Shown piece by piece: positions 1-42,765 of a stretch of 64,000 nt of DNA. Below the pieces are notes generated by a model. That model saw only the letters and a list, made by a program, of their open reading frames with translations, was not told the origin of the DNA and did not search any database. The DNA lies in contig CBDIID010000003.1 in the NCBI GenBank assembly GCA_965279515.1, positions 128,001 to 192,000 on the forward strand, given 5' to 3'. The stretch's first letter is position 1, and every line of letters starts with the position of its first letter. A program made the position numbers and the translations under genes. Origin of the DNA: Turneriella sp. (GTDB lineage Bacteria; Spirochaetota; Leptospiria; Turneriellales; Turneriellaceae).

Positions 1-184
1 ATTGACGCGTCAATAAAACTGGTTTTACACGAAGTAGCTTCGCGTCAATCATCTGCCCGAAGCGCTTCGCGAGCCTGCGAAAAACACACCTCCCGGTTTG
101 GCAGGCGTAGCGATCTTTGGCGCGTAGGGCCGAGCACGCGACCCAACGGAGTGGTCGCGGCGCAGCGCGAAATTCTTGTTCTCT
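1..184 (-). repeat. attC-like site, type G (partial)
   Basis: Right arm cgcgaaattcttGTT; near copy of 22870-23080. Confidence 0.85.
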
Positions 185-291
185 GCAGTGTTTAGCTACG
201 TCAGCCGCGTGCGACATGGAGGTCGCACGCGGACGGCTTTGTCAAAACTAAGGGCTATTTAGCGGCTTTTTCTGGGCAAGTTGTATTTCTG

Positions 292-308
292 TATGTACAT
301 TGTACATA
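292..308. promoter_or_regulatory. Palindromic operator candidate for brnTA
   Basis: TATGTACA-T-TGTACATA immediately before the start codon; conserved at 23177-23193. Confidence 0.55.
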
Positions 309-599
309 ATGAAGTTGGCCTTTGTATGGGATGAAGCCAAGAATCTTGAGAATATCAAGAAGCACGGAGTCTCTTTCGAAGAAGCCAGCACGATCTTTAG
401 CCGTATACCTTATGAGATTTACAATGATCCAGATCATTCAGAAAAGGAACACCGATATCTGGCGATCGGCTTCAGCGACAAGGCTCGTGCCTTACTAGTG
501 AGCCATACTGAAAATGCCACAGGAACAGAGATCAGAATCATATCAGCTCGCAAAATGACAAAACAAGAACGCGCCGATGCGTTTGGAGGCAAACTATGA
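309..599 (+). CDS. brnT: BrnT family toxin
   Basis: FVWDEAKNLENIKKHGVSFEEA...IRIISARK signature. Confidence 0.9.
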   Translation: MKLAFVWDEAKNLENIKKHGVSFEEASTIFSRIPYEIYNDPDHSEKEHRYLAIGFSDKARALLVSHTENATGTEIRIISARKMTKQERADAFGGKL

Positions 600-826
600 G
601 AAAGGAATACGATTTAACCAAGTTGACGAAGGCTTCGCCTAAATACCTGAAGCATATTAAGAAGCCTGTGACGATTCGGCTTGAGCCACAAATAATTGCA
701 TATTTTAAGAGCTTGGCAGAAACTACTGGATTGCCTTACCAATCGTTGCTGAATTTTGTTTTACGCGACTATGCAAACGAGAACAGAAAACCCAATGCGA
801 ATTGGGGCAAAGTAGCTTCGCGTTAA
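596..826 (+). CDS. brnA: BrnA family antitoxin
   Basis: MRKEYD...KKPVTIRL...YFK...GLPYQSLLN; ATGA overlap with toxin. Confidence 0.88.
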   Translation: MRKEYDLTKLTKASPKYLKHIKKPVTIRLEPQIIAYFKSLAETTGLPYQSLLNFVLRDYANENRKPNANWGKVASR

Positions 827-874
827 GGCGGCCGGCAGGGATGCCGGACGCTCTTATCTCTTGCTAAACATTGC

Positions 875-1099
875 AGAGAACGTGGAATTTACCTGAAGTT
901 TATGGTGCGTCGCACAATGGCGGCTGTCTTCTCTCGAAAGCCGCGTTTTGACGCACCATAAATTTGCCCGGAGCGCCTCGCGGCAAAGCACAAAACAAGC
1001 GTCCCGCTTGTGCTTTGTCCGCGATCTTCTGGCGCGTAGGGCCGAGCACGCGAGGAGCCACGGCACCGCAGCGAGCGCAGCAGGTAAATTTTGTTGTGC
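875..1099 (-). repeat. attC-like site, type B
   Basis: AAC gtgg aatttacctg ... caggtaaatt tt GTT. Confidence 0.88.
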
Positions 1100-1120
1100 G
1101 ATGCCGAGAACGCCGCGGAA

Positions 1121-1786
1121 CTAGTCATAGTAAAGCTCTTCTTCTCTAATATTCATTTCATCTTTGAAGTCTTCCCACGCTGACATTGGTGGCAGATATC
1201 CTTTTGGCCTATGTGCTTTGTATAGGCAATTATGCACTTCAAGCTGTAATATACGATACTTAGACTTTAGATCAGCCACTTTATGAAAAATATCCAGTTC
1301 CTTTCTACATTGGATAGCCGGATTAATGTCAAGAATCAAATTGTTTTCAATAGATTTCTCGCCTTGCAGAAGCCGAAGCTTCAATAGGGTAAGAGCGTGT
1401 CGGAAACGAATCTCCCGCTTTGCGTATTCGTGCAACGGCTTCAGAGTTTTGGGTATTTTTAGATTATCAATTTCCATGATGCCTTTCTTGCCTATTGATA
1501 AATTTATCTCAGCATTATGAAAGAAATTTAGAGACTCAACATCATACTTGCCGCATGGTTTGTATGGAGGATTGTCTCGGCATTGAGTTAAATCAGGAAC
1601 TCGTTCTGCAAACCCGAAATGATATTGTGGATGAATTTGCATGATTTCATCAAGCTCGTTCGGAGATATCTTCGTTTTGTCAAAATGCAGCTTTATCGCT
1701 ATGCCATACAGTTGATACTTGCGAGTGGCAGCGAAGGCCTGACTCGAAACAAGAATCAGCAAAAGAAAAATAATGTATTTACGCAT
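1121..1786 (-). CDS. Hypothetical exported protein
   Basis: Fills cassette; signal peptide MRKYIIFLLLILVSSQAFA. Confidence 0.75.
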   Translation of the reverse strand: MRKYIIFLLLILVSSQAFAATRKYQLYGIAIKLHFDKTKISPNELDEIMQIHPQYHFGFAERVPDLTQCRDNPPYKPCGKYDVESLNFFHNAEINLSIGKKGIMEIDNLKIPKTLKPLHEYAKREIRFRHALTLLKLRLLQGEKSIENNLILDINPAIQCRKELDIFHKVADLKSKYRILQLEVHNCLYKAHRPKGYLPPMSAWEDFKDEMNIREEELYYD

Positions 1787-1810
1787 ATTGATGTCGTCGT
1801 TCTCGGTTTC

Positions 1811-2033
1811 GCACAACGTGGAATTTACACGAGGTCGATGGTGCGACGCACAATAAAAGCAGGCTTATTGCGAAAGCCGCGTATTGAGCACCATCGATCT
1901 GCCGTAGACCGCTCGTTGCGCCTGACCAAACAAACGTCCCGTTTGTCAGGCGTCAACGATCTTTGCGGTCGGAGGCCGAGCACGCGAGGAGCCACGGCAC
2001 CGCAGCGAGCGCAGCGTGTAAATTTTGTTGTGC
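1811..2033 (-). repeat. attC-like site, type C
   Basis: aatttacacg ... cgtgtaaatt stem. Confidence 0.88.
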
Positions 2034-2554: not shown

Positions 2555-2771
2555 GCACAACGTGGAAAATACCCGAATTGCGCCCCCGCGGCTGTAAAGT
2601 GTAAATAATCGCGGCTTTATGCGACTTTCGCGGGAGCGCATTTGCCCGTAGCGCCTCGCGAGCCCGCCAATGCAGGCCCACTGGCCTGCGGGCGCAGCGA
2701 TCTTCGGCGCGTAGGGCCGAGCACGCGACCCAGCGTAGCGGTCGCGGCGCAGCGGGTATTTTTTGTTGTCG
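2555..2771 (-). repeat. attC-like site, type D
   Basis: aaaatacccg ... cgggtatttt stem. Confidence 0.88.
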
Positions 2772-2875
2772 GCAGTTGTTGGTTGATCGCTTGGGCACGG
2801 ATGCCCAAGCAGATGCTGGCTTCTCTAAGTCTTTCTTATGGATTTACCTGTCGTTCTGAGAATTCAGAATAATCA

Positions 2876-3301
2876 ATGATCGGTAGTTGCCTATGCGGCG
2901 AAATTGAGTTCAAATTAGAGAATAAGCAGTATAAGCTATACCAGTGCCATTGCTCACTATGCAGAAAGCAAAGTGGCGGCCCAGCCAATGCAGCAACTTT
3001 GGTGCTTGAGAATAAGTTCTCCTGGCAAAAAGGGAAAGAACACATTCGGTCTTATGTCAAAGCAACAGGCTTTAGATCTGATTTCTGTTCTAAGTGCGGC
3101 TCACCAGTTCCAAATAGGATCGGAAATACCGACTATATGTGGATACCTGCTGGGCTGCTGAAAACCTCTGATAAATTTGAAATTGTTGCCCATTTATTTA
3201 TCGGGTCAAAGGCGGCATGGGACTCGGCGCCCACTCATGGAGAAATCTTTGAGACTGGTCCAGGAGTTGAAGGTCTATTCAGGTTACTCGAAGGAGTGTA
3301 A
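2876..3301 (+). CDS. GFA/CENP-V family Zn-binding protein
   Basis: GSCLCG, CHCSLCRK and FCSKCGSP motifs. Confidence 0.92.
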   Translation: MIGSCLCGEIEFKLENKQYKLYQCHCSLCRKQSGGPANAATLVLENKFSWQKGKEHIRSYVKATGFRSDFCSKCGSPVPNRIGNTDYMWIPAGLLKTSDKFEIVAHLFIGSKAAWDSAPTHGEIFETGPGVEGLFRLLEGV

Positions 3302-3361
3302 TCTGCGATGTATGCACCGCCATGGATGGCGGTGGAGGAACACCTGCTTTCCAACAATTGC

Positions 3362-3578
3362 CGACAACGTGGATTTTACGCTGACGTTTTTTGACGCTCG
3401 TGTCATTTATTCAATTTGTAAAGCCGATTCGCGTCAAAAAATGTGGTCGTAGCGGCTCGCGGCGACGCGCGAAAACACACCTCCCGGTGTGCGCGTCGTC
3501 CGCGATCTTTGCCGCGAAGACCCGAGCACGCGAGGAGCTACGGCACCGCAGCGGCGCAGCGCGTAAAATTTGTTCTCT
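3362..3578 (-). repeat. attC-like site, type A
   Basis: attttacgc ... gcgtaaaat stem. Confidence 0.88.
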
Positions 3579-3738
3579 GCCGTTGTTGGGCTTGTGAGCT
3601 CGGCCACGGATGGCCGAGCGACTAGAATTGAATCATATATGTCTTCGCTATTCATTGATTTCCTAAAAGAGATTCAGATACTTCTAACCTCGGCTTAATT
3701 AGCAATTGACGTTCGGATCAAGGTATGAATCAAATACG

Positions 3739-4062
3739 ATGTACATGAATGAAAAGGAAACAGCACCTATTTGGCTTTTGTATGGCCTACCAAGTGTTCT
3801 ATTGCTATCTGGTCTAATTTCAGTAATTACACGGACTTTCTGGATGGCCGGCGGTGCGCGCGGCGGTACCAGCAAATTAATCGGAATGCCTGCCGTATAT
3901 TTCGGTATTGGTCTAATGTGTTTAGGTATCTTTTTTTACAGTTTCGTAACTATACGACTGACGATGCGGGCCAATCAGCTTATTCGGATCGTTGCCTGGG
4001 TCTCGGGTTTCCTTACTTTAGCCAGCTGGGCTTTACTGGGAATCGTATTAGGTAATCGATAA
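3739..4062 (+). CDS. Hypothetical membrane protein
   Basis: Three hydrophobic segments; start uncertain. Confidence 0.65.
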   Translation: MYMNEKETAPIWLLYGLPSVLLLSGLISVITRTFWMAGGARGGTSKLIGMPAVYFGIGLMCLGIFFYSFVTIRLTMRANQLIRIVAWVSGFLTLASWALLGIVLGNR

Positions 4063-4155
4063 ATTTCCCGATGCGCAAGTCCGTTGGCAGCTGATAAGCT
4101 GCCTTTGAATGAGCATCGGCAAGGATGCCGATGAATATCAGAGCCTAACAATGGC

Positions 4156-4349
4156 AGAGAACGCGGGTTTTACCTTGACGTTTTTGCTTGTGGCGTCTTC
4201 GACACAAGCAAAAATGTGCCCGGAGCGCCTGCCCGAGCCCGCCAATGCAGGCCCACAGGCCGGCGGGCGCAGGGCATCTTTGGCGCGGAGTGGCCGAGCA
4301 CACGACCCAACGAAGTGGTCGTGCGCGCAGCAGGTAAAACTTGTTGTGC
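4156..4349 (-). repeat. attC-like site, type E
   Basis: gttttacct ... aggtaaaac stem. Confidence 0.88.
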
Positions 4350-4479
4350 GACGTTTTTGCGGCTGCACCGGCGGCCACGGATGGCCGCGGGTGCTTTTGA
4401 CAAATTTGTTCTATTCATGAGATTCGGGGGACATTTCAGCATATGGTTGACAAACGCCTTCCGCTATATATTGTTACGC

Positions 4480-4701
4480 ATGGCTAAGTACGCCCTAAAC
4501 ATACGGGACGAAGCAAAAGGAAAGAACCTAGTGCTTTTCCTCAAAACCCTGGATTTTGTTAAGGTTTCAGACGTTCATACCCCTAAAAAATCTAAAAAAC
4601 GCCATCCAAAAGATTTTTTCGCAGCCCAAGGGGTCTGGAAAGAGCATAACATTACTGGAAAAGAGCTTCGAGAATTGGCTTGGAATCGTGGTAATCGTTG
4701 A
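4480..4701 (+). CDS. Putative antitoxin (VapB-like)
   Basis: 73-aa ORF overlapping the PIN gene; TTGACA at 4447 upstream. Confidence 0.7.
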   Translation: MAKYALNIRDEAKGKNLVLFLKTLDFVKVSDVHTPKKSKKRHPKDFFAAQGVWKEHNITGKELRELAWNRGNR

Positions 4702-5062
4702 TACCGATGTCATCGTAGAGTTCCTTCGGGGTTCTCCTGATGCGGCCAAAGCACTAAAGGCAATTAAGCCAGAAAATCTAGCTATTTCTGCTGTTACGAG
4801 AATGGAACTTCTTGTTGGTGCATGGAACAATGCAGAGCTACGAAAAATTGAAAAATCTCTGGATGCCATTCAAGAAATAAGTATTTCTGAGGATATTTCG
4901 GCGAAAGCCGTGGATCTAATACGAAACTACGCCAAAAGCCACGGTCTCAAAATACCAGATGCGATAATTGCCGCAACTGCAATTGACCAATCCGTTCATC
5001 TCTTCACTTACAATATTCGGGATTTCAAATTCATTAAAGGCCTAACTCTGTATTCTGTTTAG
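4688..5062 (+). CDS. vapC: VapC/PIN domain toxin
   Basis: IVDTDVIV...ELLVG...PDAIIAATA...TYNIRDF. Confidence 0.9.
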   Translation: MVIVDTDVIVEFLRGSPDAAKALKAIKPENLAISAVTRMELLVGAWNNAELRKIEKSLDAIQEISISEDISAKAVDLIRNYAKSHGLKIPDAIIAATAIDQSVHLFTYNIRDFKFIKGLTLYSV

Positions 5063-5113
5063 CGTTGAAGCGTCGGCAAGGATGCCGACGAGGCAAAGGC
5101 CGCAAAAATGTTC

Positions 5114-5329
5114 GCACAACGTGGAATTTACCTGAGGTTGAGTGACGCTTTGTTCAACTTTGTATTCTGTAAAGCCATTTTGCGTCACTCAATCTGCCCG
5201 GAGCGCCTCGCGGCAAAGCACAAAACAAGCGTCCCGCTTGTGCTTTGTCCGCGATTTTCTGGCGCGTAGGGCCGAGCACCCGAGGAGCCACGGCACCGCA
5301 GGGAGCGCAGCAGGTAAATTTTGTTGTCT
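5114..5329 (-). repeat. attC-like site, type B
   Basis: AAC...GTT bounded repeat. Confidence 0.88.
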
Positions 5330-6866: not shown

Positions 6867-7087
6867 AGACAACGTTGGATTTACAAGAAGTTGATGACGC
6901 GCCGCACAATAAAGGCGGGCTTATCAGGAAAGCCGCATATTGAGCGTCATCAATTTGCCGAGCCCACAGCGTTGCGCCGCACCGAATGCACGTCACGTGC
7001 GTGCGGCGTCAACGCCTCTTTGTGGGCGAGGCCGAGCACGCGAGCCAACGAAGTGCTCGCGCGCGCAGCTTGTAAATCTTGTTCTCT
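6867..7087 (-). repeat. attC-like site, type F
   Basis: gatttacaag ... cttgtaaatc stem. Confidence 0.85.
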
Positions 7088-7193
7088 GCCGTGATCGCGC
7101 TTGTGAGCCCGGGCAAGGAGGCCCGGGCGATCTTTTCGATTAAAGTCTAAGATTCGTTTACAGAATACTTTGCCGAAACTTATGAGCCTATAC

Positions 7194-8135
7194 ATGAAAC
7201 TGATAAAGGCTTTTATGGGCATAAACTTCATTATAGCCATTTTTACCTCTACCTCTATTAGCTCGGCCGATTGGCCCAGTGATATATACTTACATAAAAG
7301 CACTCAGACAGCGTTTGTTTCTTCCTCTAGAGGAAAGGTTTTTTCCATAAACTTGAAAACAAATGAATCAAAGCTGATTTTCTCTGAAAAGTTTGGTATC
7401 ACGGCGCTAGCTCCTCTCGACGGCCAAAATCAGAGACTGATTTTCGGAGGTTCAGCCGGAGTACGTATCATAGATCTAAACGGCAATTTGTTGCGAAAGA
7501 CGGATGTTAGGGAACTATGGTTTGAGTCATTAAGCCCCTTAGCGGGAACGGAAACATTTGCGGTCTCAACGCTCAGCTCGGTTAGAGTTTATGGCCACGC
7601 TGAGTTAGATGTGGCTTCCTTTGATACGCACACGAACCTAATTGGGAGCATTGCCTTCCTCTCGAAAGAAAAGATTATTGGCAAAGCCGAGAAGGCAATA
7701 CTCATTATGTCGCCTCTTACCAAGACATTTGAAGTTTATACGACTGGCGTAAGCCCCAGGGAAGTAATGTTAGAGCACTGCGGCGGCGAAGAAGTCTTAT
7801 CATACGGTTTCGGAACCAAATTTTCCCTTTATCAAATGCAAGACAAGGCAATTAAGGCAGAAGTTTTACAAGTACCTGAAGCCGGTGTCGACATCGATGG
7901 GGTAGGTTGTGATAGAGATTGGGTTGTCATCGGAAGCACTAAAGGCATGCTTTATGTTTTCGATAGAAATACAAAGAGATGGTCGAATTTCAAGGGTCAC
8001 AACGGCAATATTATCAAGGTCAAGATTTTCGGTGATTCATTTTACACCATCTCGACTGATGGTTTTTTTAAAATTTGGACAAAAGAAAAGAAACTGGTTC
8101 GGGAAATTGGCGTTATGCCCCCTGTAGCAAAATGA
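7194..8135 (+). CDS. Exported WD40-like beta-propeller protein
   Basis: Signal peptide; GHNGNI...TISTDGFFKIW repeat; start uncertain. Confidence 0.75.
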   Translation: MKLIKAFMGINFIIAIFTSTSISSADWPSDIYLHKSTQTAFVSSSRGKVFSINLKTNESKLIFSEKFGITALAPLDGQNQRLIFGGSAGVRIIDLNGNLLRKTDVRELWFESLSPLAGTETFAVSTLSSVRVYGHAELDVASFDTHTNLIGSIAFLSKEKIIGKAEKAILIMSPLTKTFEVYTTGVSPREVMLEHCGGEEVLSYGFGTKFSLYQMQDKAIKAEVLQVPEAGVDIDGVGCDRDWVVIGSTKGMLYVFDRNTKRWSNFKGHNGNIIKVKIFGDSFYTISTDGFFKIWTKEKKLVREIGVMPPVAK

Positions 8136-8184
8136 AAGAAAGCGCCAGCATGGATGCTGGCGAACAACGTCGCGCGATCATGGC

Positions 8185-8399
8185 AGAGAACGTGGAAAAT
8201 ACCCGAGGGGCGCGTTTGCGGGTGTAAAGCCGTTTTACTTGGGTTAATGAGACTTTCGCGTAGCGCCTCTGCCGAACCGGCTCGCTGTGGCGCGCCAAAT
8301 GCAGCTCAAGGAGCTGCGCGCCGCAGCGATCTTTGCCGGTGAGGCCGAGCACGCGACCCAACGTAGTGGTCGCGGCGCAGCGGGTATTTTTTGTTCTCT
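8185..8399 (-). repeat. attC-like site, type D
   Basis: aaaatacccg ... cgggtatttt stem. Confidence 0.88.
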
Positions 8400-8710: not shown

Positions 8711-10045
8711 GGTACAATATCAGAACATCGGTAACGAAAAGTCATCACGACATCGGTAACAGTTCTGCCTCAGGCTTTGCCGTGGTTTCCTCCTGATTTG
8801 GTGTAAACAAATAATTGTTCCGATCGATGTAGCCCAATAGCAGGCTACCGAAGTAGACGTCGATGCGCATGTCGGCGATAAACCGGAGCCCGATCGGGTA
8901 GCCGTTAAAAGAATTGCCGATAAATATCCGGTGCTGCTTGTAGTTGGTGTAACCGCGGTCATTTACGATGCGTACGATGCAATCCTCAGGGTAGGCGGGT
9001 AGTACGTCGCCAGTATACGGAATTTCAGATGGTAGGTAGAACTCTGATGGCGTCCTCATGCCCAGGGCTTCATGCGGTCGCACATTGTTGAAGTCTTCGC
9101 GCCACTGATCAAACGAAATCTGGTGAAGCTTTAGATCACCGCGAATGCGCCCCTGCAGTTCCGTGCGGATGTCTCTGTGCATACGCTCATGTCCGCCATT
9201 CTGCGCTGGCTTTCCCGGATCAATGCGGTCCAGAGAAATTCCCAAGGACAGCCACCAGACTGACAATTTTGTCAGGCCAAAGAGGCCCCACGATGATGCG
9301 AAAGGAGTTCCGTTGTCAGAGCGAATAATTTCCGGCAGACCATAGCGTTTGAAGAGTCTGGCAAAGTGTTGTTTTACATTGGAAATATTGCCCTTTTCCA
9401 GTATCTGTATCGACAGGATGTACTTACTGTACTCATCGCGAACTGTCAGAGGTTCGCATTTCTCTGCATGTGCAGTATACCACCACCCCTTGAAATCAAC
9501 CGTCCATATGTGATTGGGATGCGTCGCCTTTTCGCGAAGCATCAGCCTCTCTCCGGTTCTGCGGCGCTTCTTTCCTCTTGGCCTTGTCAGACCAGAGCGC
9601 GCCAGAAGGCGATCGACTGTAGGCACTGAAATATCGCCTTTGCGCTCGGGGTAAAGCCTGCAGAAGACCGCATAGATCTTCTTGGCTCCCCAGCGAGGCC
9701 TGTTATTCTTTATGCGAATAATGTCGCAGATTGTTTCTTCGTCAGTGCGGTTCGGATTGCCTCCTGGTTTTCGTGACAACTCCGCCAATCCAGCTAAGCC
9801 TTTTTCCAGAAACCTTGCCTTCCACTTGTACCCTGTCTTGGTGCTGATACCAAACTCGCGGCACAGCTCTGTGAAACTCTCTACGCCCTCCAGGGCGCGA
9901 AAGACAAAAGATCTTTTCTCTTCCATTTTGGTAACCTCTTTCCACGGCATTTGAGCCCCCTGCCGAAGGCAGGCAAAAGCCCGTTGCGAAGCAAAGTGTT
10001 ACCGATGTCTTGATAGAAATGTGTTACCTATGTCGTGATAGTACC
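8711..10045 (-). mobile_element. IS481-like insertion sequence, copy 1 (flanks do not form a TSD)
   Basis: 1335 bp, ends GGTAC...GTACC with repeated ACATCGGTAAC boxes; flanks GGCA and TAAT. Confidence 0.92.
8745..9950 (-). CDS. IS481-family DDE transposase
   Basis: N-terminal HTH; WTVDFKG, IRSDNG and ERMHR core; RPHEALG. Confidence 0.92.
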   Translation of the reverse strand: MPWKEVTKMEEKRSFVFRALEGVESFTELCREFGISTKTGYKWKARFLEKGLAGLAELSRKPGGNPNRTDEETICDIIRIKNNRPRWGAKKIYAVFCRLYPERKGDISVPTVDRLLARSGLTRPRGKKRRRTGERLMLREKATHPNHIWTVDFKGWWYTAHAEKCEPLTVRDEYSKYILSIQILEKGNISNVKQHFARLFKRYGLPEIIRSDNGTPFASSWGLFGLTKLSVWWLSLGISLDRIDPGKPAQNGGHERMHRDIRTELQGRIRGDLKLHQISFDQWREDFNNVRPHEALGMRTPSEFYLPSEIPYTGDVLPAYPEDCIVRIVNDRGYTNYKQHRIFIGNSFNGYPIGLRFIADMRIDVYFGSLLLGYIDRNNYLFTPNQEETTAKPEAELLPMS

Positions 10046-10057: not shown

Positions 10058-10274
10058 ACACAACGTGGATTTTACGCTGACGTTTTTTGACGCTTGTGTC
10101 ATTTATTCAGTTTGTAAAGCCGATTTGCGTCAAAAAATGTGGTCGTAGCGGCTCGCGGCGACGCGCGAAAACACACCTCCCGGTGTGCGCGTCGTCCGCG
10201 ATCTTAGCCGCGGAGACCCGAGCACGCGAGGAGCTACGGCACCGCAGCGGCGCAGCGCGTAAAATTTGTTGTCT
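10058..10274 (-). repeat. attC-like site, type A
   Basis: AAC...GTT bounded repeat. Confidence 0.88.
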
Positions 10275-10483
10275 GAAGTAATTGCGCCTGTGAGCCCGGC
10301 TAGGAGGGCCGGGCGACAACGGCTAAGGCTTCACTGGAAAATTTAAAAAGATACTTAACTCAAAAGTTCTCACAGCCTGCCATTCTGTCGCCTCGCAAAA
10401 CAGGCTTTACGCCTAAGACTTACTGGATTCCGAATGTCTTAGTAAGGAGTAAGTTCCTAGTATTTAATATAGGGGGAAGACCA

Positions 10484-10771
10484 ATGACAGCCTGGTGGAA
10501 TCTATTTAATAAAAGCGAAAGGTATTTCGGGTCATCACCGCTTGCACAACCTGAATGGGCGCAACCTTTGTTAGCTATCGGTACTTTAGTTAGAATTACG
10601 TCCAAGCCTGAAAAAATACGCGAGGTAATTGAAATAGAATGGCATTGGCATCGGCACGAATTTGTGTATGTTATTGAAACTAGCGCATTAAATTTGTCCC
10701 CGCCGTTTAAACCCTACTGGTTTTTAAGTCAATTGGTCTCACATCAAGATAAATCCCTTCGGGCAATATAG
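10484..10771 (+). CDS. Hypothetical protein
   Basis: Most protein-like ORF in the cassette; purine-rich SD-like stretch upstream. Confidence 0.6.
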   Translation: MTAWWNLFNKSERYFGSSPLAQPEWAQPLLAIGTLVRITSKPEKIREVIEIEWHWHRHEFVYVIETSALNLSPPFKPYWFLSQLVSHQDKSLRAI

Positions 10772-10902
10772 AAAATCTTTTCTTACATTCATTTCTAAAA
10801 TAAAGCCCTTTAATGCTATAACTGCCCATAGCTGGTTAGTCTGTCGGTGGAAGTTCGCCGCGCCGACAGGAGGTCGGCGGAGAACAAAGGCGCAATTATT
10901 TC

Positions 10903-11117
10903 AGACAACGTGGAATTTACCTGAGGTTGAGTGACGCCTCGTTCAACTTTGTGTTCTGTAAAGCCATATTGCGTCACTCAATCTGCCCGGAGCGCCTCGC
11001 GGCAAAGCACAAAACAAGCGTCCCGCTTGTGCTTTGTCCGCGATCTTCGGCGCGTAGGGCCGAGCACGCGAGGAGCTACGGCGCCGCAGCGAGCGCAGCA
11101 GGTAAATTTTGTTAGGC
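10903..11117 (-). repeat. attC-like site, type B
   Basis: AAC...GTT bounded repeat. Confidence 0.88.
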
Positions 11118-11171
11118 GAAGAAGCTGGTACGGTAGAGCGGCAAAACATGGAGGTTTTGCCGGTTAAGCGC

Positions 11172-11747
11172 TTACAGGGAAATTGCCCGAACATGGCTAA
11201 AAGCCGGCTGATTAAATGGACGAATTTTCTCGACTGTGCCAATGTTTTCGAGCCATTTAGGATTTTGTTTCTTAACATAGTCGTAAAAGCCTTGTTTTTC
11301 GATCTCATCTTTCGACGCCTCAAATTCCGTAAACTTATGGGTAATTTTACGGAACCCGGTCGAAACATCAAGAGCGTAGCTGCCAGCATAATAGATTTTT
11401 TTAGAAACGACTTTGAACGGTTGGCACTCTTCAATGCATACGAATGTGCTACCACCTAAGCAAATCGTGGCGATTTGATAGGTGCCAGCAGGCACAGCAA
11501 TTGTTGTATATGGATCTGTATTTCTAGTTGAAGAGCCGCTTAAAGCATTTGAGAGATATTCTACGTTTGAGTCAATATTGATAACCGAAAAATTCTCGGA
11601 CATTCGCCCGATCTTACCAATGCCGTCTCGATCGACGAAGATGCCCACTAAGCTCTGACCTTCATGGTAATCAGGAAAGCTCTTACATTGGTTGATCATT
11701 AAGCTACCAAGTACACCTATGATCGATATTATCTTATTGATCTTCAT
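11172..11747 (-). CDS. Putative lipoprotein
   Basis: MKINKIISIIGVLGSLMINQ-C leader. Confidence 0.7.
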   Translation of the reverse strand: MKINKIISIIGVLGSLMINQCKSFPDYHEGQSLVGIFVDRDGIGKIGRMSENFSVINIDSNVEYLSNALSGSSTRNTDPYTTIAVPAGTYQIATICLGGSTFVCIEECQPFKVVSKKIYYAGSYALDVSTGFRKITHKFTEFEASKDEIEKQGFYDYVKKQNPKWLENIGTVEKIRPFNQPAFSHVRAISL

Positions 11748-11893
11748 TCTTGTATGATTTACCCGACTTGCGTTGGTATGCCGTTGTAAATCAATATTCA
11801 AAAAGTCTATTCTTGAACAGCGTCAGAGAGAGACGTGCATGTGCCGACAGGAGGTCGGCATTGGGAAGTCTTGAAATCGTTTCCAGCTTTTTC

Positions 11894-12117
11894 GCCTAAC
11901 GTGGAATTTACACGAGGTCGATGGTGCGCCGCACAATAAAAAGCAGACTTATTTAGAAAGCCGCATATTAAGCACCATCGATCTGCCGTAGACCGCTCGT
12001 TGCGCCTGACCAAACAAACGTCCCGTTTGTCAGGCGTCAACGATCTTTGCGGTCGGAGGCCGAGCACGCGAGGAGCCACGGCACCGCAGCGAGCGCAGCG
12101 TGTAAATTTTGTTGTCG
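11894..12117 (-). repeat. attC-like site, type C
   Basis: AAC...GTT bounded repeat. Confidence 0.88.
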
Positions 12118-13566: not shown

Positions 13567-13791
13567 GCCCAACGTTGGAATTACCTGACGTCGATGGTGC
13601 GCCGCACCATAAATGCGGTTTTCTTACAAGAGCCGCTCTTGGCGCGCCATCGATGTGCCGCAGGTGGCTGCGTTGCGCCCGCCAATTAAGCTCGATAGAG
13701 CGCGGGCGTCAACGCATTTCAGGCCACCGGAGGCCGAGCACGCGAGGACCCACGGGACCGCAGCGAGCGCAGCAGGTAATTCTTGTTGTCT
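13567..13791 (-). repeat. attC-like site, type H
   Basis: gaattacctg ... caggtaattc stem. Confidence 0.85.
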
Positions 13792-14017
13792 GAAGTAATT
13801 GCGCCTGTGAGCCCGGGCAGGGAGGCTCGGGCGACGACGAACCAAGTCCCAGAATGATCCAAAATGCTGACTTTTAGTGTCATAACTAGTCATTTTGTCA
13901 CCCTGTAGAAGAGGCTTTACACCTGAGGGATCAGGTGGTCGCGTCGCCTTTGGTGGGGATTAATTTCCTAAATGTTAAGTACTTGCCGTCACATGCGGCA
14001 CCAAATATATTAAGTGC

Positions 14018-14254
14018 ATGAGCGTTGAGACATTGGAGAAAGCACAAGAATTCGCTGCAAATCTGACAACAGAGGAAAAAACGCAGTTGCTTGATTTTCT
14101 ATTGGTAGACCTGCAAAATGAAAATGTCGAGATCAGTCCGGCATGGATTAAGCAAATAGAAGAAAGTGAAGCAGAGATGCTCTCAGGCCGCGATCCCGGT
14201 GTGCCTTGGGCAGAAGTGCAAACGAATATGCGTCGAATCATCGGTGGCTCTTGA
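14018..14254 (+). CDS. Addiction module antitoxin component
   Basis: LTTEEKTQLLDFLL...AWIKQIE...GVPWAEV pattern. Confidence 0.8.
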   Translation: MSVETLEKAQEFAANLTTEEKTQLLDFLLVDLQNENVEISPAWIKQIEESEAEMLSGRDPGVPWAEVQTNMRRIIGGS

Positions 14255-14538
14255 AGCCAGTCATTTTTAGCCGCCGCGCAAACGCACACACCGACTCGAT
14301 CACGAAAGCTTACAGGGATGTTTCGGTATCTGCCGCAACGAAATTTGAGAAGGCCATCAATGTCGCCGTCGGTCATATCACTCTGCAGCCGAAAGCGTGG
14401 GCAAATTTTCATACGCACTATCGGAAATTCATTTTGAAACCGTTTCCTTACGCCATTGTGTATCGGGAGCTAAATGATATTATTCGTGTTCTTGAGATTG
14501 TAGATTTGCGCCGCGAACCGGGTTACTGGCTGAAATAG
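14251..14538 (+). CDS. RelE/ParE family toxin
   Basis: YRKFILKPFPYAIVYR...RREPGYW; TTGA overlap. Confidence 0.85.
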   Translation: MKPVIFSRRANAHTDSITKAYRDVSVSAATKFEKAINVAVGHITLQPKAWANFHTHYRKFILKPFPYAIVYRELNDIIRVLEIVDLRREPGYWLK

Positions 14539-14700
14539 ACCTGAAACCGACTTGCCGCCATTCTGAATGACAAACTTTTCGCCTGAAAGTTTGGGGACGG
14601 CCACCAGATCTATTGAGGAATCATGTTCTTAAATGCTTATTCCATACCGGACCAACTGCGTCGGCACGAGGCCGACGAAGTACAAAGGCGCAATTATTTC

Positions 14701-14916
14701 AGACAACGTGGAAAATACCCGAATTGCGCCCTCGCGGGTGTAAAGTGCAAATAAACACGGTTTATGTGACTTTCGCGGGAGCGCATTTGCCCGTAGCGCC
14801 TCGCGAGCCCGCCAATGCAGGCCCAGTGGCCTGCGGGCGTAGCGATCTTCGGCGCGTAGGGCCGAGCACGCGACCCAACGTAGTGGTCGCGGCGCAGCGG
14901 GTATTTTTTGTTAGCC
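14701..14916 (-). repeat. attC-like site, type D
   Basis: AAC...GTT bounded repeat. Confidence 0.88.
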
Positions 14917-18560: not shown

Positions 18561-18714
18561 GACGTAGTTGCGCATGCGAGCCCGGGCATGGAGGGCCGGG
18601 CGACAAGTAGACCAGGCTCCTCGCCCTTTAGCGTTTTAAAATGAAAATCTGTGTTGCCGCTCTATGTTTGGCCAGAAAAAAATCCATTACTGATACAGAA
18701 TTTAAGAACTATTT

Positions 18715-24696: not shown

Positions 24697-24755
24697 AATT
24701 GCAAGAAACTCTGCGCCGCCACGGATGGCGGCGAAGTAAAGCGCGCAACTATGTC

Positions 24756-27938: not shown

Positions 27939-28029
27939 GCCGTTGTCGCTACGTAAAGCTCGGCCAAGGAGGGCCGAGCGTGAGCCTTTTCCCCTGATTA
28001 TTCGAGAAAATGCTTTTTAGCCTGTTCAC

Positions 28030-28569
28030 ATGAAACAATTCGGAATTATGTCGCATTGGGGATGGACCATATTTCTTGTCATACTACTTGGGTGTAAAAC
28101 CGCCCCGCCGGATTCGGTTGAAACGCTTAATGATGTTCAATTAGAAGAGGACGAAGACCCCGCTGATTCAACGCGACTTATAATCAAGAAAATTGGACAT
28201 ACAGAGGCCAATGGCTTCAGACAATTAAGTGTACGAATCGAAATTTCTAGCTACGGCGAAGTTATGCAGTCTTTTCAAGAGCTCTTCATTACTTTTGGCT
28301 CGATTGAAAAGCTAGTCTTCGGTGAAAAGATTGCCTATTTCATTTCATGCGACAGGCAAGGGTCAACTTGGGCTGCCAAGAAAGCCATTATTGTATGGGA
28401 TAAAGAAGGCATTTGGAGTATTTTGCCGCTGCATTTTGATCGCGCCACGCTTCATAAAAATGAGAAGCGTTTCCTGATAGATGAGAAAATTGGCGTGATC
28501 GGCGAAAATCCTACTGGGAACCAGCTCTATGAGTTCAATGATGGCTTGCTAACATTGTATAAACCCTGA
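28030..28569 (+). CDS. Putative lipoprotein
   Basis: FLVILLG-C lipobox. Confidence 0.75.
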   Translation: MKQFGIMSHWGWTIFLVILLGCKTAPPDSVETLNDVQLEEDEDPADSTRLIIKKIGHTEANGFRQLSVRIEISSYGEVMQSFQELFITFGSIEKLVFGEKIAYFISCDRQGSTWAAKKAIIVWDKEGIWSILPLHFDRATLHKNEKRFLIDEKIGVIGENPTGNQLYEFNDGLLTLYKP

Positions 28570-28639
28570 CTGACGTCATCCTGTTCAGCTTGCAAACAGG
28601 CGCGCAAGGATGCGCGCGAAATCGAAATTGATTTATGCG

Positions 28640-29974
28640 GGTACAATATCAGAACATCGGTAACGAAAAGTCATCACGACATCGGTAACAGTTCTGCCTC
28701 AGGCTTTGCCGTGGTTTCCTCCTGATTTGGTGTAAACAAATAATTGTTCCGATCGATGTAGCCCAATAGCAGGCTACCGAAGTAGACGTCGATGCGCATG
28801 TCGGCGATAAACCGGAGCCCGATCGGGTAGCCGTTAAAAGAATTGCCGATAAATATCCGGTGCTGCTTGTAGTTGGTGTAACCGCGGTCATTTACGATGC
28901 GTACGATGCAATCCTCAGGGTAGGCGGGTAGTACGTCGCCAGTATACGGAATTTCAGATGGTAGGTAGAACTCTGATGGCGTCCTCATGCCCAGGGCTTC
29001 ATGCGGTCGCACATTGTTGAAGTCTTCGCGCCACTGATCAAACGAAATCTGGTGAAGCTTTAGATCACCGCGAATGCGCCCCTGCAGTTCCGTGCGGATG
29101 TCTCTGTGCATACGCTCATGTCCGCCATTCTGCGCTGGCTTTCCCGGATCAATGCGGTCCAGAGAAATTCCCAAGGACAGCCACCAGACTGACAATTTTG
29201 TCAGGCCAAAGAGGCCCCACGATGATGCGAAAGGAGTTCCGTTGTCAGAGCGAATAATTTCCGGCAGACCATAGCGTTTGAAGAGTCTGGCAAAGTGTTG
29301 TTTTACATTGGAAATATTGCCCTTTTCCAGTATCTGTATCGACAGGATGTACTTACTGTACTCATCGCGAACTGTCAGAGGTTCGCATTTCTCTGCATGT
29401 GCAGTATACCACCACCCCTTGAAATCAACCGTCCATATGTGATTGGGATGCGTCGCCTTTTCGCGAAGCATCAGCCTCTCTCCGGTTCTGCGGCGCTTCT
29501 TTCCTCTTGGCCTTGTCAGACCAGAGCGCGCCAGAAGGCGATCGACTGTAGGCACTGAAATATCGCCTTTGCGCTCGGGGTAAAGCCTGCAGAAGACCGC
29601 ATAGATCTTCTTGGCTCCCCAGCGAGGCCTGTTATTCTTTATGCGAATAATGTCGCAGATTGTTTCTTCGTCAGTGCGGTTCGGATTGCCTCCTGGTTTT
29701 CGTGACAACTCCGCCAATCCAGCTAAGCCTTTTTCCAGAAACCTTGCCTTCCACTTGTACCCTGTCTTGGTGCTGATACCAAACTCGCGGCACAGCTCTG
29801 TGAAACTCTCTACGCCCTCCAGGGCGCGAAAGACAAAAGATCTTTTCTCTTCCATTTTGGTAACCTCTTTCCACGGCATTTGAGCCCCCTGCCGAAGGCA
29901 GGCAAAAGCCCGTTGCGAAGCAAAGTGTTACCGATGTCTTGATAGAAATGTGTTACCTATGTCGTGATAGTACC
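28640..29974 (-). mobile_element. IS481-like insertion sequence, copy 3
   Basis: 1335 bp; 4-bp TSD TGCG. Confidence 0.93.
28674..29879 (-). CDS. IS481-family DDE transposase
   Basis: Identical protein to copy 1. Confidence 0.92.
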   Translation of the reverse strand: MPWKEVTKMEEKRSFVFRALEGVESFTELCREFGISTKTGYKWKARFLEKGLAGLAELSRKPGGNPNRTDEETICDIIRIKNNRPRWGAKKIYAVFCRLYPERKGDISVPTVDRLLARSGLTRPRGKKRRRTGERLMLREKATHPNHIWTVDFKGWWYTAHAEKCEPLTVRDEYSKYILSIQILEKGNISNVKQHFARLFKRYGLPEIIRSDNGTPFASSWGLFGLTKLSVWWLSLGISLDRIDPGKPAQNGGHERMHRDIRTELQGRIRGDLKLHQISFDQWREDFNNVRPHEALGMRTPSEFYLPSEIPYTGDVLPAYPEDCIVRIVNDRGYTNYKQHRIFIGNSFNGYPIGLRFIADMRIDVYFGSLLLGYIDRNNYLFTPNQEETTAKPEAELLPMS

Positions 29975-29986
29975 TGCGACAATGGC

Positions 29987-30202
29987 GCCCAACGTGGAAT
30001 TTACCTGACGTTTGGTGACACTTGTGTCATTAATTTAATAAGGAAAGCCAAATTGTGTCACCAAATGTGCCCGGAGCGCCTCGCGGCAAAGCACAAAACA
30101 AGCGTCCCGCTTGTGCTTTGTCCGCGATCTTCTGGCGCGTAGGGCCGAGCACGCGAGGAGCCACGGCACCGCAGCGAGCGCAGCAGGTAAATTTTGTTGT
30201 AC
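29987..30202 (-). repeat. attC-like site, type B
   Basis: AAC...GTT bounded repeat. Confidence 0.88.
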
Positions 30203-35977: not shown

Positions 35978-36193
35978 GCCCAACGTTGGATTTTACGCTG
36001 ACGTTTTTTGACGCCTGTGTCATTTATTCAATCTGTAAAGCCGAATCGCGTCAAAAAATGTGGTCGTAGCGGCTCGCGGCGACGCGCGAAAACACACCTC
36101 CCGGTGTGCGCGTCGTCCGCGATCTTTGCCGCGAAGACCCGAGCACGCGACCCAACGGAGTGGTCGCGGCGCAGCGCGTAAAATTTGTTCTCT
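35978..36193 (-). repeat. attC-like site, type A (alternative last hairpin)
   Basis: AAC...GTT bounded repeat. Confidence 0.88.
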
Positions 36194-36346
36194 GCCGTAG
36201 CTGCACTTGTGAGCCTAGGCACGGATGCCTAGGCGACTAAGATCGGTAAAGTTACCGCCGGCATTCTACTTATTTCGGATATGAGCTCTTGCTCAAAAAC
36301 AATGTTTACGGCTTTCGAAGCCATAATTTCTGGTCAGGCTTTTCTT

Positions 36347-36895
36347 ATGAGTCTTAATTCCTTATTTAATTTTCGTATCTCATGTACATGTTTCTTACTA
36401 CTGCTTTTTAGTACTTCCATAAAAGCGGCTGAATTGCCTGGATTTGATGTCGGAGTTTTAGGCAATGTATATGATACCATTAAGAGTGATGGCAGACCTC
36501 TGGCCTGGGGTAGTGGAGCTGGTGCTCTCGTTCACTGGCAATGGTCCGCGGATTGGCGAAGCGGAATGCAGATTGGATGCATAAGCGTCTGTGCTGGTAA
36601 TCTTGAAATCGGTTATCGAGCACAAACAATCTCTTATTCTCGGTTTCGGTATCCAGAACGACTGATTTATTATATCATCGGTTTGGGTATTCATGAAGTT
36701 TGGTTGCGTTTTGTCACGGGGATCAATTCAGTTAAGAACTATGATTCGCAACTTGGACTCGGTGTTGGATTCAGTGTGCACGCGTTTAAAATAGGCGATT
36801 TCTTCTTATCCTACGGAATAAATTTCTACATCATTAATGAATATATGGCATTTGGCTTAGGTCAAGCTTTTGCAGCTCTAGCGTTTCGGCTCTGA
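36347..36895 (+). CDS. Hypothetical outer-membrane protein
   Basis: Signal peptide; amphipathic beta strands; start uncertain. Confidence 0.65.
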   Translation: MSLNSLFNFRISCTCFLLLLFSTSIKAAELPGFDVGVLGNVYDTIKSDGRPLAWGSGAGALVHWQWSADWRSGMQIGCISVCAGNLEIGYRAQTISYSRFRYPERLIYYIIGLGIHEVWLRFVTGINSVKNYDSQLGLGVGFSVHAFKIGDFFLSYGINFYIINEYMAFGLGQAFAALAFRL

Positions 36896-36965
36896 GGAGA
36901 GATAATACATAACTGCGACGCGGCACCGCCACGGAGGGCGGTGAAAGAAAAAGTGCAGCTATGGC

Positions 36966-37179
36966 AGAGAACGTGGAATTTACCTGACGATTGGTGACAC
37001 TAGTGTCATTAATTTAATCAGGAAAGCCGAATTGTGTCACCAATTGTGCCCGGAGCGCCTCGCGGCAAAGCACAAAACAAGCGTCCCGCTTGTGCTTTGT
37101 CCGCGATCTTCGGCGCGTAGGGCCGAGCACGCGAGGAGCTACGGCACCGCAGCGGCGCAGCAGGTAAATTTTGTTGGGC
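36966..37179 (-). repeat. attC-like site, type B
   Basis: AAC...GTT bounded repeat. Confidence 0.88.
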
Positions 37180-40842: not shown

Positions 40843-40865
40843 AAAAATCTCCTGTGGCGAATTGC

Positions 40866-41081
40866 AGACAACGTGGATTTTACGCTGACGTTTTTTGACG
40901 CTTGTGTCATTTATTCAATCTGTAAAGCCGATTTGCGTCAAAAAATGTGGTCGAAGCGGCTCGCGGCGACGCGCAAAAGCAAGCGTCCCGCTTGCGCGTC
41001 GTCCGCGATCTTTGCCGCCGAGACCCGAGCACGCGAGGAGCTACGGCACCGCAGCGGCGCAGCGCGTAAAATTTGTTGGCT
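40866..41081 (-). repeat. attC-like site, type A (mosaic inner hairpin)
   Basis: A stem with B-type caagcgtcccgcttg tip. Confidence 0.88.
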
Positions 41082-41113
41082 GAAGTGATGCGTTGGGAGA
41101 TTACGCTTTGCCG

Positions 41114-41674
41114 CTATTTTAGAACCTTCGATTTTCGTTTATCAACGTCACTTAAGTAAAGAAACCCGGGAACGGTACCGCTATTTGTACCCCCCTTAAA
41201 AGGAACTGTAGCTCTGAATTTGAGGGGAAACATCTGTTTTGCATTCTTTTTGAGGGCCTTGTAATTTTCTTTCAATTCTGCCGCCTCGGGTTTTATTATT
41301 CCGTTCCAGAACGCAATTTGTTTAGTCCTGGCAATAATTATCGGGTGAACATAACCCAAATCTACCGTATCACTTGGTGTAATGTAACCAATAAAGGCTG
41401 TTCCATCGGCGCTGATAAATTCGGCCCGGACAACAAGTTGACCGGTAAATTCAGTAATTTCCTTGAGATCTGGGCGAGGGCGGACGGTAGCTTCATCTTG
41501 ACCTTCAATACCTTCTTCGTCCAAGGCAAATTCCCATACCGGACATTGCTCGATATCTGAGATTTTCAAATCGTATACTTGTTTTCGGATTCGCATCTGT
41601 GCCGCCAAATTCGTGACCAATAGTATCAATGTAATAAGTGGGGGAAGAGCTCGTCTGGTCAGAGAAATTATCAT
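41114..41674 (-). CDS. Hypothetical protein
   Basis: Fills cassette; hydrophobic leader. Confidence 0.75.
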   Translation of the reverse strand: MIISLTRRALPPLITLILLVTNLAAQMRIRKQVYDLKISDIEQCPVWEFALDEEGIEGQDEATVRPRPDLKEITEFTGQLVVRAEFISADGTAFIGYITPSDTVDLGYVHPIIIARTKQIAFWNGIIKPEAAELKENYKALKKNAKQMFPLKFRATVPFKGGTNSGTVPGFLYLSDVDKRKSKVLK

Positions 41675-41702
41675 GTAAACATCTTAGTCATCGCATCATT
41701 TC

Positions 41703-41920
41703 AGCCAACGTGGATTTTACGCTGACGTTTTTTGACGCGTGTGTCATTTATTCAAACTGTAAAGCCGATTTGCGTCAAAAAATGTGGTCGTAGCGGCTCG
41801 CGGCGACGCGCGAAAACACACCTCCCGGTGTGCGCGTCGTCCGCGATCTCTGGCCGCGGAGACCCGAGCACGCGAGGAGCTACGGCACCGCAGCGGCGCA
41901 GCGCGTAAAATTTGTTGTCT
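41703..41920 (-). repeat. attC-like site, type A
   Basis: AAC...GTT bounded repeat; first attC after the attI-like end. Confidence 0.88.
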
Positions 41921-41994
41921 GAAGTAATTGCGCCTGCAAGCCTGGCCAAGGAGGGCCAGGCGGCTAATTAAGATAAAATTTTAGGCTCATAAAT

Positions 41995-42510
41995 TCAGAT
42001 AAATGACGGTACAAGTATATCTATTCCTTTGAGATTTATTCGCGATAGGATTTCCTTTCCGCGGGGAGAAATAAATAGCCTAGGCTTATTTATTTCATAA
42101 TAAACCAGCTCGTCTTTCAGTACATTATCTTTGAACACCGGTTCATCAATAACCAAAATGTTTCCGGAAGAGCCATAGGTGATCTGGGAACTCCCTTGAT
42201 CCAAGCAGCTTCTATGATTTTTGCATGCGAATAGGAATATCTCGGTATCATCGCACATTAATCTGTGAAATGTACCGTCATTGCTTAACGCGGAAAATAG
42301 CTCAGGAATTTTCTTGCCAATTACAGTTAGCCCGACACTTGTATCAATATCTGGCATGGGTCGTGTTTTTGCATAAGCCCATGAGACCTTAGTGTTTTTG
42401 AGGACGTTTGGGCTGAATCGCCCAAAACGCAGTGCGTCATCGATTTCGTTTTGATTTGAGAACAAGAGTTGCTGATATCTGTTCTTAGGCGAAAGTATGT
42501 ATGGCTTCAT
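41995..42510 (-). CDS. Hypothetical protein, Imm11-like
   Basis: CLDxxxS...ILVIDEPVF...LFIS...LKGI pattern resembles Imm11/DUF1629. Confidence 0.5.
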   Translation of the reverse strand: MKPYILSPKNRYQQLLFSNQNEIDDALRFGRFSPNVLKNTKVSWAYAKTRPMPDIDTSVGLTVIGKKIPELFSALSNDGTFHRLMCDDTEIFLFACKNHRSCLDQGSSQITYGSSGNILVIDEPVFKDNVLKDELVYYEINKPRLFISPRGKEILSRINLKGIDILVPSFI

Positions 42511-42668
42511 TAGACGCCCCTGGCAAATAAATCAATATTCTCGAGATTGATTTTATATGGCAAATCATGTTGTCACTCAAAAGGAATTTCATATAAGAAA
42601 ATGCCCTCCCTTGCCTTGCGCGCAGCGTCGCCAAGGATGGCGACGAAGTATATAGGCGCAATTATTTC

Positions 42669-42765
42669 AGACAACGTCTATTAGCTGAATTGCGTATAAT
42701 TGCCAAAATGTCAATAATCTGGCGAAAAGCGAGGGGGATTTGGTGTTTTCGCGCATTGCGTAAAA
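42669..42765 (-). other. Putative attI-like site (array entry point)
   Basis: The cassette starting at 41914 ends with its matching IR ...tttcagacAAC at 42675. No attC body follows; - strand reads ...cagctaatagac-GTT. TTGCGTA is repeated at ~42690 and ~42756. Confidence 0.6.

Follow-up and report, generated by a model that had tools for sequence, protein, structure and literature searches.

The window analysed here, a 64,000-nucleotide stretch of a Turneriella sp. genome (assembly GCA_965279515.1, contig CBDIID010000003.1; in our numbering G000:C3:128001-192000, G000 being the genome under study), contained an integron-type gene-cassette array of a kind in which about a third of the cassettes cap each end with a GC-rich C-A(N)GGAN-G hairpin that always lies on the bottom strand. 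Up to position 42675 the window held 41 attC-like repeats and 41 cassettes (Table 1), which form the right-hand part of an array that spans C3:90.8-170.7 kb and has ~71-76 cassettes; the same genome holds another array, of ~46-52 cassettes, at 3734.5-3805.4 kb. On the + strand, cassettes began with GTT, ended with AAC and were separated by repeats of ~185-217 nt, predicted to fold into a basal stem with branched arms; in the predicted folds, two bases bulge close to the core and the top is branched. The two boundaries of each cassette form an inverted repeat of ~18-21 nt, with which the outer stem of attC is completed once the cassette is excised as a circle. As the final cassette was not followed by a repeat, this end is the attI-proximal one and the array is read along the − strand, a direction also backed by G·T wobble polarity. 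The + strand gave the better fold in 104/114 attC sites, and mismatches in the terminal inverted repeats of cassettes were G·T in 431 cases and A·C in 6, identifying the + strand as the folded (bottom) strand. Contigs from 4 of 9 read runs confirmed the assembly of the cassettes in 1-8300.

A first-pass annotation of this DNA had described a hairpin inside each end of 15 cassettes, and all 15 carried the pair, including the three hairpins it had singled out at 205-232, 2789-2810 and 3315-3334. A strict scan found 26 hairpins on the + strand of 1-42700, none on the − strand and none in the rest of the window, compared with a mean of 0.07 and a maximum of 1 in 100 triplet shuffles. The same scan, extended to the count inside and outside the arrays that had been proposed as a check, returned 85 hairpins in 151 kb of arrays and 26 in the other 4.75 Mb of the genome. 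Left loops began 32-38 nt from GTT and right loops finished 36-47 nt from AAC; the left hairpin of cassette 10268 was closed as T-AGGAG-G, and the right hairpin of cassette 27932 was displaced from the end by an insertion sequence (IS). Pfam matches backed the + orientation of the genes in cassettes 178, 2765, 4343, 21015 and 23074, and weakly that in 7081; the orientations given for 10268 and 13785 are those of the open reading frames (ORFs).

Table 1. Features of the cassette array, in window positions; cassettes are named in the text by their first position.
Feature	Position	Strand	Details
Integron-type cassette array, attI-proximal part	1..42675	top strand = −	41 cassettes in window; extends left to ~C3:90.8 kb
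Hairpin-capped cassette, inverted BrnT/BrnA	178..881	+	Loops 216 (ATGGAG), 837 (AGGGAT); Pfam
Hairpin-capped cassette, inverted GFA gene	2765..3368	+	Loops 2797, 3322; Pfam
Hairpin-capped cassette, inverted 118-aa ORF	3572..4162	+	Loops 3606, 4121
Hairpin-capped cassette, inverted PIN toxin	4343..5120	+	Loops 4377, 5078; Pfam
Hairpin-capped cassette, inverted WD40-like gene	7081..8191	+	Loops 7115, 8150; Pfam weak
IS copy, 401-aa rve transposase, inside cassette	8712..10044	−	Pfam, ORFs
Example attC-like repeat, 209 nt, AAC...GTT	10062..10270	+	Basal stem with branched arms (predicted)
Hairpin-capped cassette, shared-end family	10268..10909	+	Left hairpin 10294-10314, right loop 10868
Hairpin-capped co-oriented cassette	11111..11900	−	Loops 11148, 11849 on +, antisense to gene
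Hairpin-capped cassette, shared-end family	13785..14707	+	Loops 13819, 14666 (ACGAG, no GGA)
IS copies, same 401-aa rve transposase	15090-16422, 28641-29973		Inserted near cassette ends
Hairpin-capped inverted cassette	18554..19301	+	Loops 18588, 19260
Hairpin-capped cassette, inverted methyltransferase	21015..21954	+	Loops 21048, 21912; Pfam
Hairpin-capped cassette, inverted BrnT/BrnA, paralogue of 178	23074..23766	+	Loops 23112, 23722; Pfam
Hairpin-capped inverted cassette	23970..24762	+	Loops 24004, 24721
Hairpin-capped inverted cassette interrupted by IS 28641-29973	27932..29993	+	Left loop 27966, right hairpin 28600-28617
Hairpin-capped inverted cassette	36187..36972	+	Loops 36221, 36931
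First cassette after attI, shared-end family, co-oriented 171-aa ORF	41914..42675	−	Loops 41948, 42633 on +
attI-like site	42673..42690	−	Last cassette ends AAC with no attC after it; no adjoining integrase in this genome; same arrangement beside integrase in G002, G011

To place the window in a wider sample, we parsed 448 cassettes from six genomes (G000, G002, G003, G005, G011, where the array is partial, and G013), of which 437 were kept, 397 were non-duplicate and 387 remained after removal of 10 with weak end repeats. End hairpins occurred in 134 of the 387 (102 at both ends, 28 at the right only and 4 at the left only), leaving 253 with none; on closer examination, the left stem was interrupted in several of the right-only cassettes, and another case (12777) was a spurious A/T-rich match. 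Whatever the direction of the genes, the bottom strand carried all 236 hairpins and the top strand 0. Polarity thus follows the bottom strand and not the mRNA strand of the cargo, which means that the hairpins are not simple marks of reversed cassettes and cannot in general be 5' untranslated region (UTR) repression sites. When cargo was classed by a crude longest-ORF rule, hairpins were found in 38/43 single inverted, 25/163 single co-oriented, 20/24 other mostly inverted, 24/47 other mostly co-oriented, 21/30 multi-gene or IS-bearing, 6/11 ambiguous and 0/69 short cassettes. The split of 13 inverted to 2 co-oriented cassettes in the first-pass annotation therefore fits the ORFs of the window but does not hold as a general rule, with 5 of 43 inverted single-gene cassettes lacking hairpins and 25 of 163 co-oriented ones having them.

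Cargo also differed between the classes. Pfam results for 150 of 230 ORFs from hairpin cassettes included Mrr, toxin-antitoxin genes pointing either way, a mer operon and pieces of 5-9 kb that look chromosomal, such as an 8.9-kb ClpP/ECF-sigma/DsbD piece, whereas those for 150 of 203 ORFs from hairpin-free cassettes were mostly single unknown genes, alongside some toxins of the PIN and Gp49 types, of which two were inverted. Cassettes longer than 2 kb made up 17/134 of the hairpin-bearing and 5/184 of the hairpin-free group. From the type of cargo we infer that the hairpin class is, with exceptions, DNA carrying its own promoters and other expression signals in either direction; scans for promoter-like sequences gave a weak signal (17 sites, compared with 20 in shuffles) and differences between the classes were small. 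In relatives (L035:940-2049, L035:3510-6466 and L059:11731-12912), the cargo included a reverse transcriptase, carried by a hairpin-free cassette, and a mer operon and an IS91-type transposase, carried by hairpin cassettes. Hairpin cassettes were not clustered along the array (50 adjacent pairs vs 47 expected), and kissing of the GGA loop with the TCC loop of attC arm 2 was not enriched (62/127 hairpin cassettes vs 109/176 others). The same array type was recognised in 12 of 42 metagenome matches, where 10 whole cassettes started 24-25 nt before the motif and had the right-end hairpin. In a different genomic background, on a metagenome contig of ~57% GC (L202), an insertion behind a nickel-regulator-like gene consisted of a left-frame hairpin with a partial terminal repeat and, after it, cassette-like genes of low GC. 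Among 300 further genomes of the phylum, all outside the genus, 0 had the exact left-frame pattern.

A tally of 219 strong end hairpins, blind to the loop, gave 191 with GGA, 20 with ACGA, 8 others and none with TCC; the 191 have an A(N)GGAX loop on a stem closed by C-G, a pattern that the 20 ACGA loops do not share. Csr/Rsm proteins read A(N)GGAX hexa- and pentaloops on a C-G pair, with N and X free, according to the accessible text of PMC4005645, and GGA hexaloops are bound by Leptospira CsrA in that of PMC8668096; the earlier recognition of the loop as the CsrA/RsmA consensus is thus borne out as a sequence match. In 34 comparisons between homologous cassettes, made without requiring the loop motif for detection and after removing 6 rows joined only by a shared IS, position 2 (N) had changed 13 times and position 6 (X) 7 times, while positions 1, 3, 4 and 5 had changed 0, 1, 0 and 1 times. 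Changes are therefore almost confined to the two positions that CsrA ignores (20 vs 2), arguing that the loops remain under selection and that, as judged from these comparisons, purifying selection continues long after a cassette has formed. The hairpin state was uniform in 17/19 cassette families. Watson-Crick pairs made up almost the whole of the stems (20 G·T among 1652 pairs), and both sides had changed in 6/8 pairs, a covariation score reached by 0/500 shuffles for 20 hand-picked left ends whose kinship inflates it. A csrA gene was present in 41/41 genomes searched (G000 and 40 relatives), in G000 beside fliW and a flagellar hook gene. Loop-motif matches numbered 8, 11 and 87 in three Bacteroidota genomes with no csrA match, compared with 2, 5 and 75 for the controls; the few cassettes visible in these three genomes, a small sample, were co-oriented and hairpin-free.

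None of the 41 genomes encoded a protein above the cut-off of the IntI model (TIGR02249). Instead, a tyrosine recombinase gene of 366-429 aa adjoined the array, and was divergent from it, in G002, G005, G007, G011, G012 and G013. Its product aligned with VchIntIA at both ends but had 24 residues where VchIntIA has 65, so that ~41 residues are missing from a segment spanning VchIntIA 179-245, which holds the I2 region, and it scored 192 and 161 bits against TIGR02249, for which the cut-off is 265. The extra helix domain I2 is a hallmark of integron integrases in the accessible text of PMC7790495; lacking it, this integron-like system falls outside IntI membership, and yet by its layout the array would behave as an integron. 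The G000 homologue lay at C3:2926093-2927193, at least 0.8 Mb from both arrays, with an attC remnant nearby at 2929088-2929180; a second recombinase, of SAM_4 type, was found at C3:2781225-2782130. A GTTC-N7-GTTC direct repeat, which we take to be akin to the alphaproteobacterial LexA box and which may mean SOS control, preceded the array-type recombinase directly in G000 (L013, C3 ~2927200), G002 and G011 (L057, L058). The array repeat itself was present in 12/13 other genomes of the genus and one genome of another genus, and related I2-less recombinases adjoined GTT...AAC cassettes in Bacillota and Bacteroidota loci.

The same loops were also found away from cassettes. With shorter stems allowed, 61 two-hairpin loci lay outside the G000 arrays, compared with 0 for each of three control loop motifs; these doublets were ~55-60 nt long, had A(N)GGAN or ACGAN loops and were in some cases tandemly expanded (e.g. 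C3 814415, 1545134 and 4269770), and none fell in window positions 42700-64000. The motif is therefore not cassette-specific. By crude gene calls, 28 doublets were sense to nearby ORFs, 21 antisense and 12 unclassed, giving no clear sense bias. At three examined loci, comparison with orthologues showed the doublet to be an insertion, which was in frame in two cases; a MarR gene was among the genes entered. ACGA loops were commoner in the first than in the second hairpin of a doublet (16 vs 9) and, in cassettes, at the right than at the left end (19 vs 3), a bias that matches the order right hairpin, attC, left hairpin at a circle junction. The doublets resemble TwoAYGGAY (RF01731), an RNA family for which Csr/Rsm sponging and mobile-like spread have been proposed in a preprint (10.64898/2026.09.22.753630) whose main text, in its accessible part, does not mention integrons or attC. 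An Rfam scan of window positions 1-43500 gave no matches at E<=1, and RF01731 had no match in G000 at E<=0.001, the best of 10 dispersed doublet loci searched reaching 24.4 bits (E=2) against a gathering score of 43. RF01731 matches occurred in 11/81 genomes of the class, mostly as tRNA-linked tandem units; the leptospiral matches share a GAGC...GCGA context with the cassette left hairpin. In one genus (g21 of family f8; L067-L078), gene-less RF01731 units of ~390 bp stood in tandem directly upstream of a tRNA gene cluster, each copying the tRNA start, and look like a separate tRNA-targeted element. In a Bacillota genome (G338; L240, L241, L244-L246), palindromes of ~260 nt had two AYGGAY-type hairpins at the tip, and one palindrome family had GTT...AAC-containing ends that we take to resemble those of IS1182-type elements.

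Four facts call for an explanation: the bottom-strand polarity, the pairing of the ends, the selection on A..GGA and the enrichment in self-expressed or long cargo. We tentatively favour a strand-level role linked to mobility, in which the two hairpins would act as a pair on the single-stranded bottom strand and, once excision has formed the circle, would lie on either side of the attC stem base; in our models the circle junction folds as hairpin, long stem, branched attC and hairpin. A two-site host protein, most likely the CsrA dimer, would bind both hairpins and hold or protect the ends, favouring excision, survival or re-insertion by the putative I2-less recombinase, which in G000 would act in trans from its detached locus. 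The probable source of the hairpins is the small mobile two-hairpin (TwoAYGGAY-like) repeats that these genomes also carry. Since it is only in the circle, around attC, that the hairpins come together, and since the CsrA dimer is two-sited, this role best covers polarity, pairing and selection, and it needs DNA binding by CsrA or by a protein of the same preference. CsrA is probably the binder of the cassette hairpins. The complete proposal, that CsrA clamps single-stranded DNA by bridging two A(N)GGAN hairpins around attC and so enables the capture or movement of promoter-bearing pieces of up to 9 kb in either orientation, is unlikely to be right in every part.

Several observations weigh against a strand-level role. 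Two thirds of cassettes are hairpin-free, so the hairpins are not required for recombination, and ~9% of loops are ACGAN and do not contain GGA. No report of CsrA binding single-stranded DNA was found in the literature searched, where CsrA is described as RNA-binding. Enrichment in self-promoted cargo, which depends on crude cargo classes, fits a role in expression equally, and the modal spacing could be explained by shared ancestry of the ends. As some cassettes are homologous and the six genomes are related, the counts are not independent; homologous cassettes were found at different places and in different genomes.

An alternative at the RNA level, which is possible but on balance doubtful, is that CsrA on bottom-strand transcripts (antisense or read-through) ends, traps or stabilises the RNA, thereby insulating self-expressed cassettes and their neighbours or sponging CsrA. 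It uses the known chemistry of CsrA, an RNA binder whose site the loops match exactly, and best covers the enrichment in self-expressed and long cargo; in inverted single-gene cassettes, where 38/43 have hairpins against 25/163 co-oriented ones, the mRNA is itself the bottom strand. TwoAYGGAY elements have likewise been proposed as Csr/Rsm sponges in the accessible text of 10.64898/2026.09.22.753630, and the presence of the same double hairpins on unrelated small mobile-looking elements argues for a role independent of one recombinase. However, ~49 co-oriented cassettes have the loops on the antisense strand only and would need bottom-strand transcripts, and a bottom-strand promoter-like match was found in only 1/370 attC sites. 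The left hairpin of cassette 4343 lies upstream of the best promoter-like match (4447-4474), as the first-pass annotation had noticed, and the dispersed doublets have no clear sense bias (28 vs 21).

The first-pass annotation had itself proposed a reusable empty frame into which genes are loaded, and in its strictest form this would mean prefabricated ends, used once at cassette formation and passive thereafter. The near-identical ends it had seen in cassettes 10268, 13785 and 41914 do share their first 22 nt, and ends of this single design, with the same 22 nt, are found on 25 cassettes from four genomes around unrelated cargo of 0.6-9 kb. The shared frame is thus real for a subfamily, while other hairpin cassettes have different ends. 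Chromosome-like operons as cargo (the mer operon and the 8.9-kb ClpP/ECF-sigma/DsbD piece) and the greater length of hairpin cassettes are in line with capture. An empty version, however, was absent among the 69 short cassettes of the six-genome sample; attC sites of the shared-end family fell into 8 clusters and were no more alike than others, which rules out co-inheritance of the ends with one attC type; and the loops are still under selection between homologous cassettes whose cargo is 67-97% identical. A frame used only at capture is accordingly quite improbable as the whole explanation, and it can be combined with the strand-level role. Further motifs 15-100 nt inside the hairpins of several unrelated large shared-end cassettes (e.g. 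G000:C3:3785083 and 3794248) suggest a longer common leader and trailer in this subfamily.

It is less probable still that the hairpins are selfish elements, akin to repetitive extragenic palindromes (REP), that accumulated at cassette ends without serving the cassette. A genome-wide REP family, equally common outside cassettes and with no fixed spacing to their ends, had been named at the outset as the finding that would speak against the cassette frame, and this holds by half: the 61 dispersed doublets, with the same loops including ACGAG and with insertion relative to orthologues at the three examined loci, are a separate family spread over the genome. The cassette hairpins differ from it in being ~100 times denser in the arrays by strict scan (85 in 151 kb vs 26 in 4.75 Mb), in their modal spacing and in their construction as single long-stem hairpins at both ends, with a strand bias of 236 to 0, strong end pairing and conservation between homologues, whereas the dispersed family inserts in both orientations. 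That the hairpins are ordinary intrinsic terminators or stabilisers of RNA ends is highly improbable: stems are GC-rich and perfect and lie at gene ends, and three hairpins of the window pass a simple terminator scan, but on the bottom strand T-tracts follow only 10/106 left and 2/130 right hairpins, and on the top strand 2 and 10, respectively, a rarity that speaks against intrinsic termination, and loop conservation and polarity would be left unexplained. A Y1 transposase as the partner of the hairpins was also rejected, as the sole copy in the genome is flanked by unrelated palindromes with A/T loops.

Among known systems, sedentary chromosomal integrons share the GTT...AAC cassettes, fold-back repeats, attI-like end, bottom-strand folding bias and toxin-antitoxin cassettes and, in relatives with an array-linked recombinase though not in G000, the divergent recombinase beside the array. 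They differ in that the recombinase here lacks I2 and falls below the TIGR02249 cut-off, the attC sites are branched and ~185-217 nt long, terminal repeats are ~20 bp, a third of cassettes have CsrA-type end hairpins and cargo reaches 9 kb. For the array-linked recombinase, the closest described system is rAID-1 of Bacteroidales, in which, according to the accessible text of 10.1101/471110, an XerD-family tyrosine recombinase adjoins gene arrays with repetitive, integron-reminiscent intergenic sequence. That system is defined by co-directional immunity genes in Bacteroidales and by a recombinase >44% identical to BF9343_RS08045, and end hairpins and inverted cargo are not described in that text; the spirochaete host and a recombinase divergent from the array set the present system apart by description. 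TwoAYGGAY, as far as its accessible description goes, shares a long basal stem with two A(N)GGAN hairpins next to it, a mobile-like copy number and a proposed function as Csr/Rsm sites, but here the hairpins are at opposite cassette ends and meet only around attC in the circle. CsrB/RsmZ-type small RNAs and Csr/Rsm sites share the hexa- and pentaloops, in which N and X are free and a C-G pair closes the loop (accessible text of PMC4005645), whereas here placement tracks the strand of DNA recombination rather than a transcript and ~9% of loops are ACGAN. Elements of the IS200/IS605 type move as single-stranded DNA and have subterminal same-strand hairpins at both ends. The cassettes likewise have paired same-strand hairpins near their ends, but these ends are attC arms. 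We found no description of hairpin-capped cassettes in the open literature searched (CsrA/GGA hairpins in cassettes, Turneriella integrons and I2-less integrons; main articles only). The hairpin feature is real and far beyond chance, and represents an integron-type cassette built from two known kinds of part.

Further features of the arrays were recorded. By cumulative GC skew the bottom strand is the lagging-strand template for both G000 arrays, and the replichore side judged from flank skew was mixed in G011 and G002. Chromosomal integrons in the lagging-template orientation are reported to hold at most 22 cassettes (PMC5371416), compared with ~76 and ~52 in the two G000 arrays. The two ends of the cassette at 8393 were mismatched, suggesting a deletion. 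A gene-less cassette type of 194 nt, without end hairpins, was repeated in G000 (27533-27727 in the window, and as an IS target at 14910, in 14910-16442), and the G011 array held many gene-less copies of 280 and 375 nt, none hairpin-ended. Outside the G000 arrays, 26 nhmmer matches represented solitary cassettes and mini-arrays, some of them end-hairpinned (1301805, 1703355-1708130 and 2882905), and one unit of 4.8 kb ended without attC.

To our knowledge, how integron cassettes form is an open question in the field. Here, one array shows two cassette classes together, tightly trimmed ORFs that have no promoter, and hairpin-capped pieces that bring promoters of their own and can be as large as whole operons, which offers a handle on capture and ties a global regulator of carbon metabolism and motility to cassette traffic or expression. 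The arrays also place large integron-type systems in spirochaetes outside Treponema, described in a 2013 abstract as the only spirochaete clade with integrons (PMC3607928), with a recombinase that IntI-based searches miss. Our results suggest that the end hairpins are an undescribed helper signal for moving self-expressing DNA. If CsrA does clamp the cassette ends, this would represent a second route of cassette formation and a role for CsrA on DNA, and would link TwoAYGGAY-type elements to gene capture.

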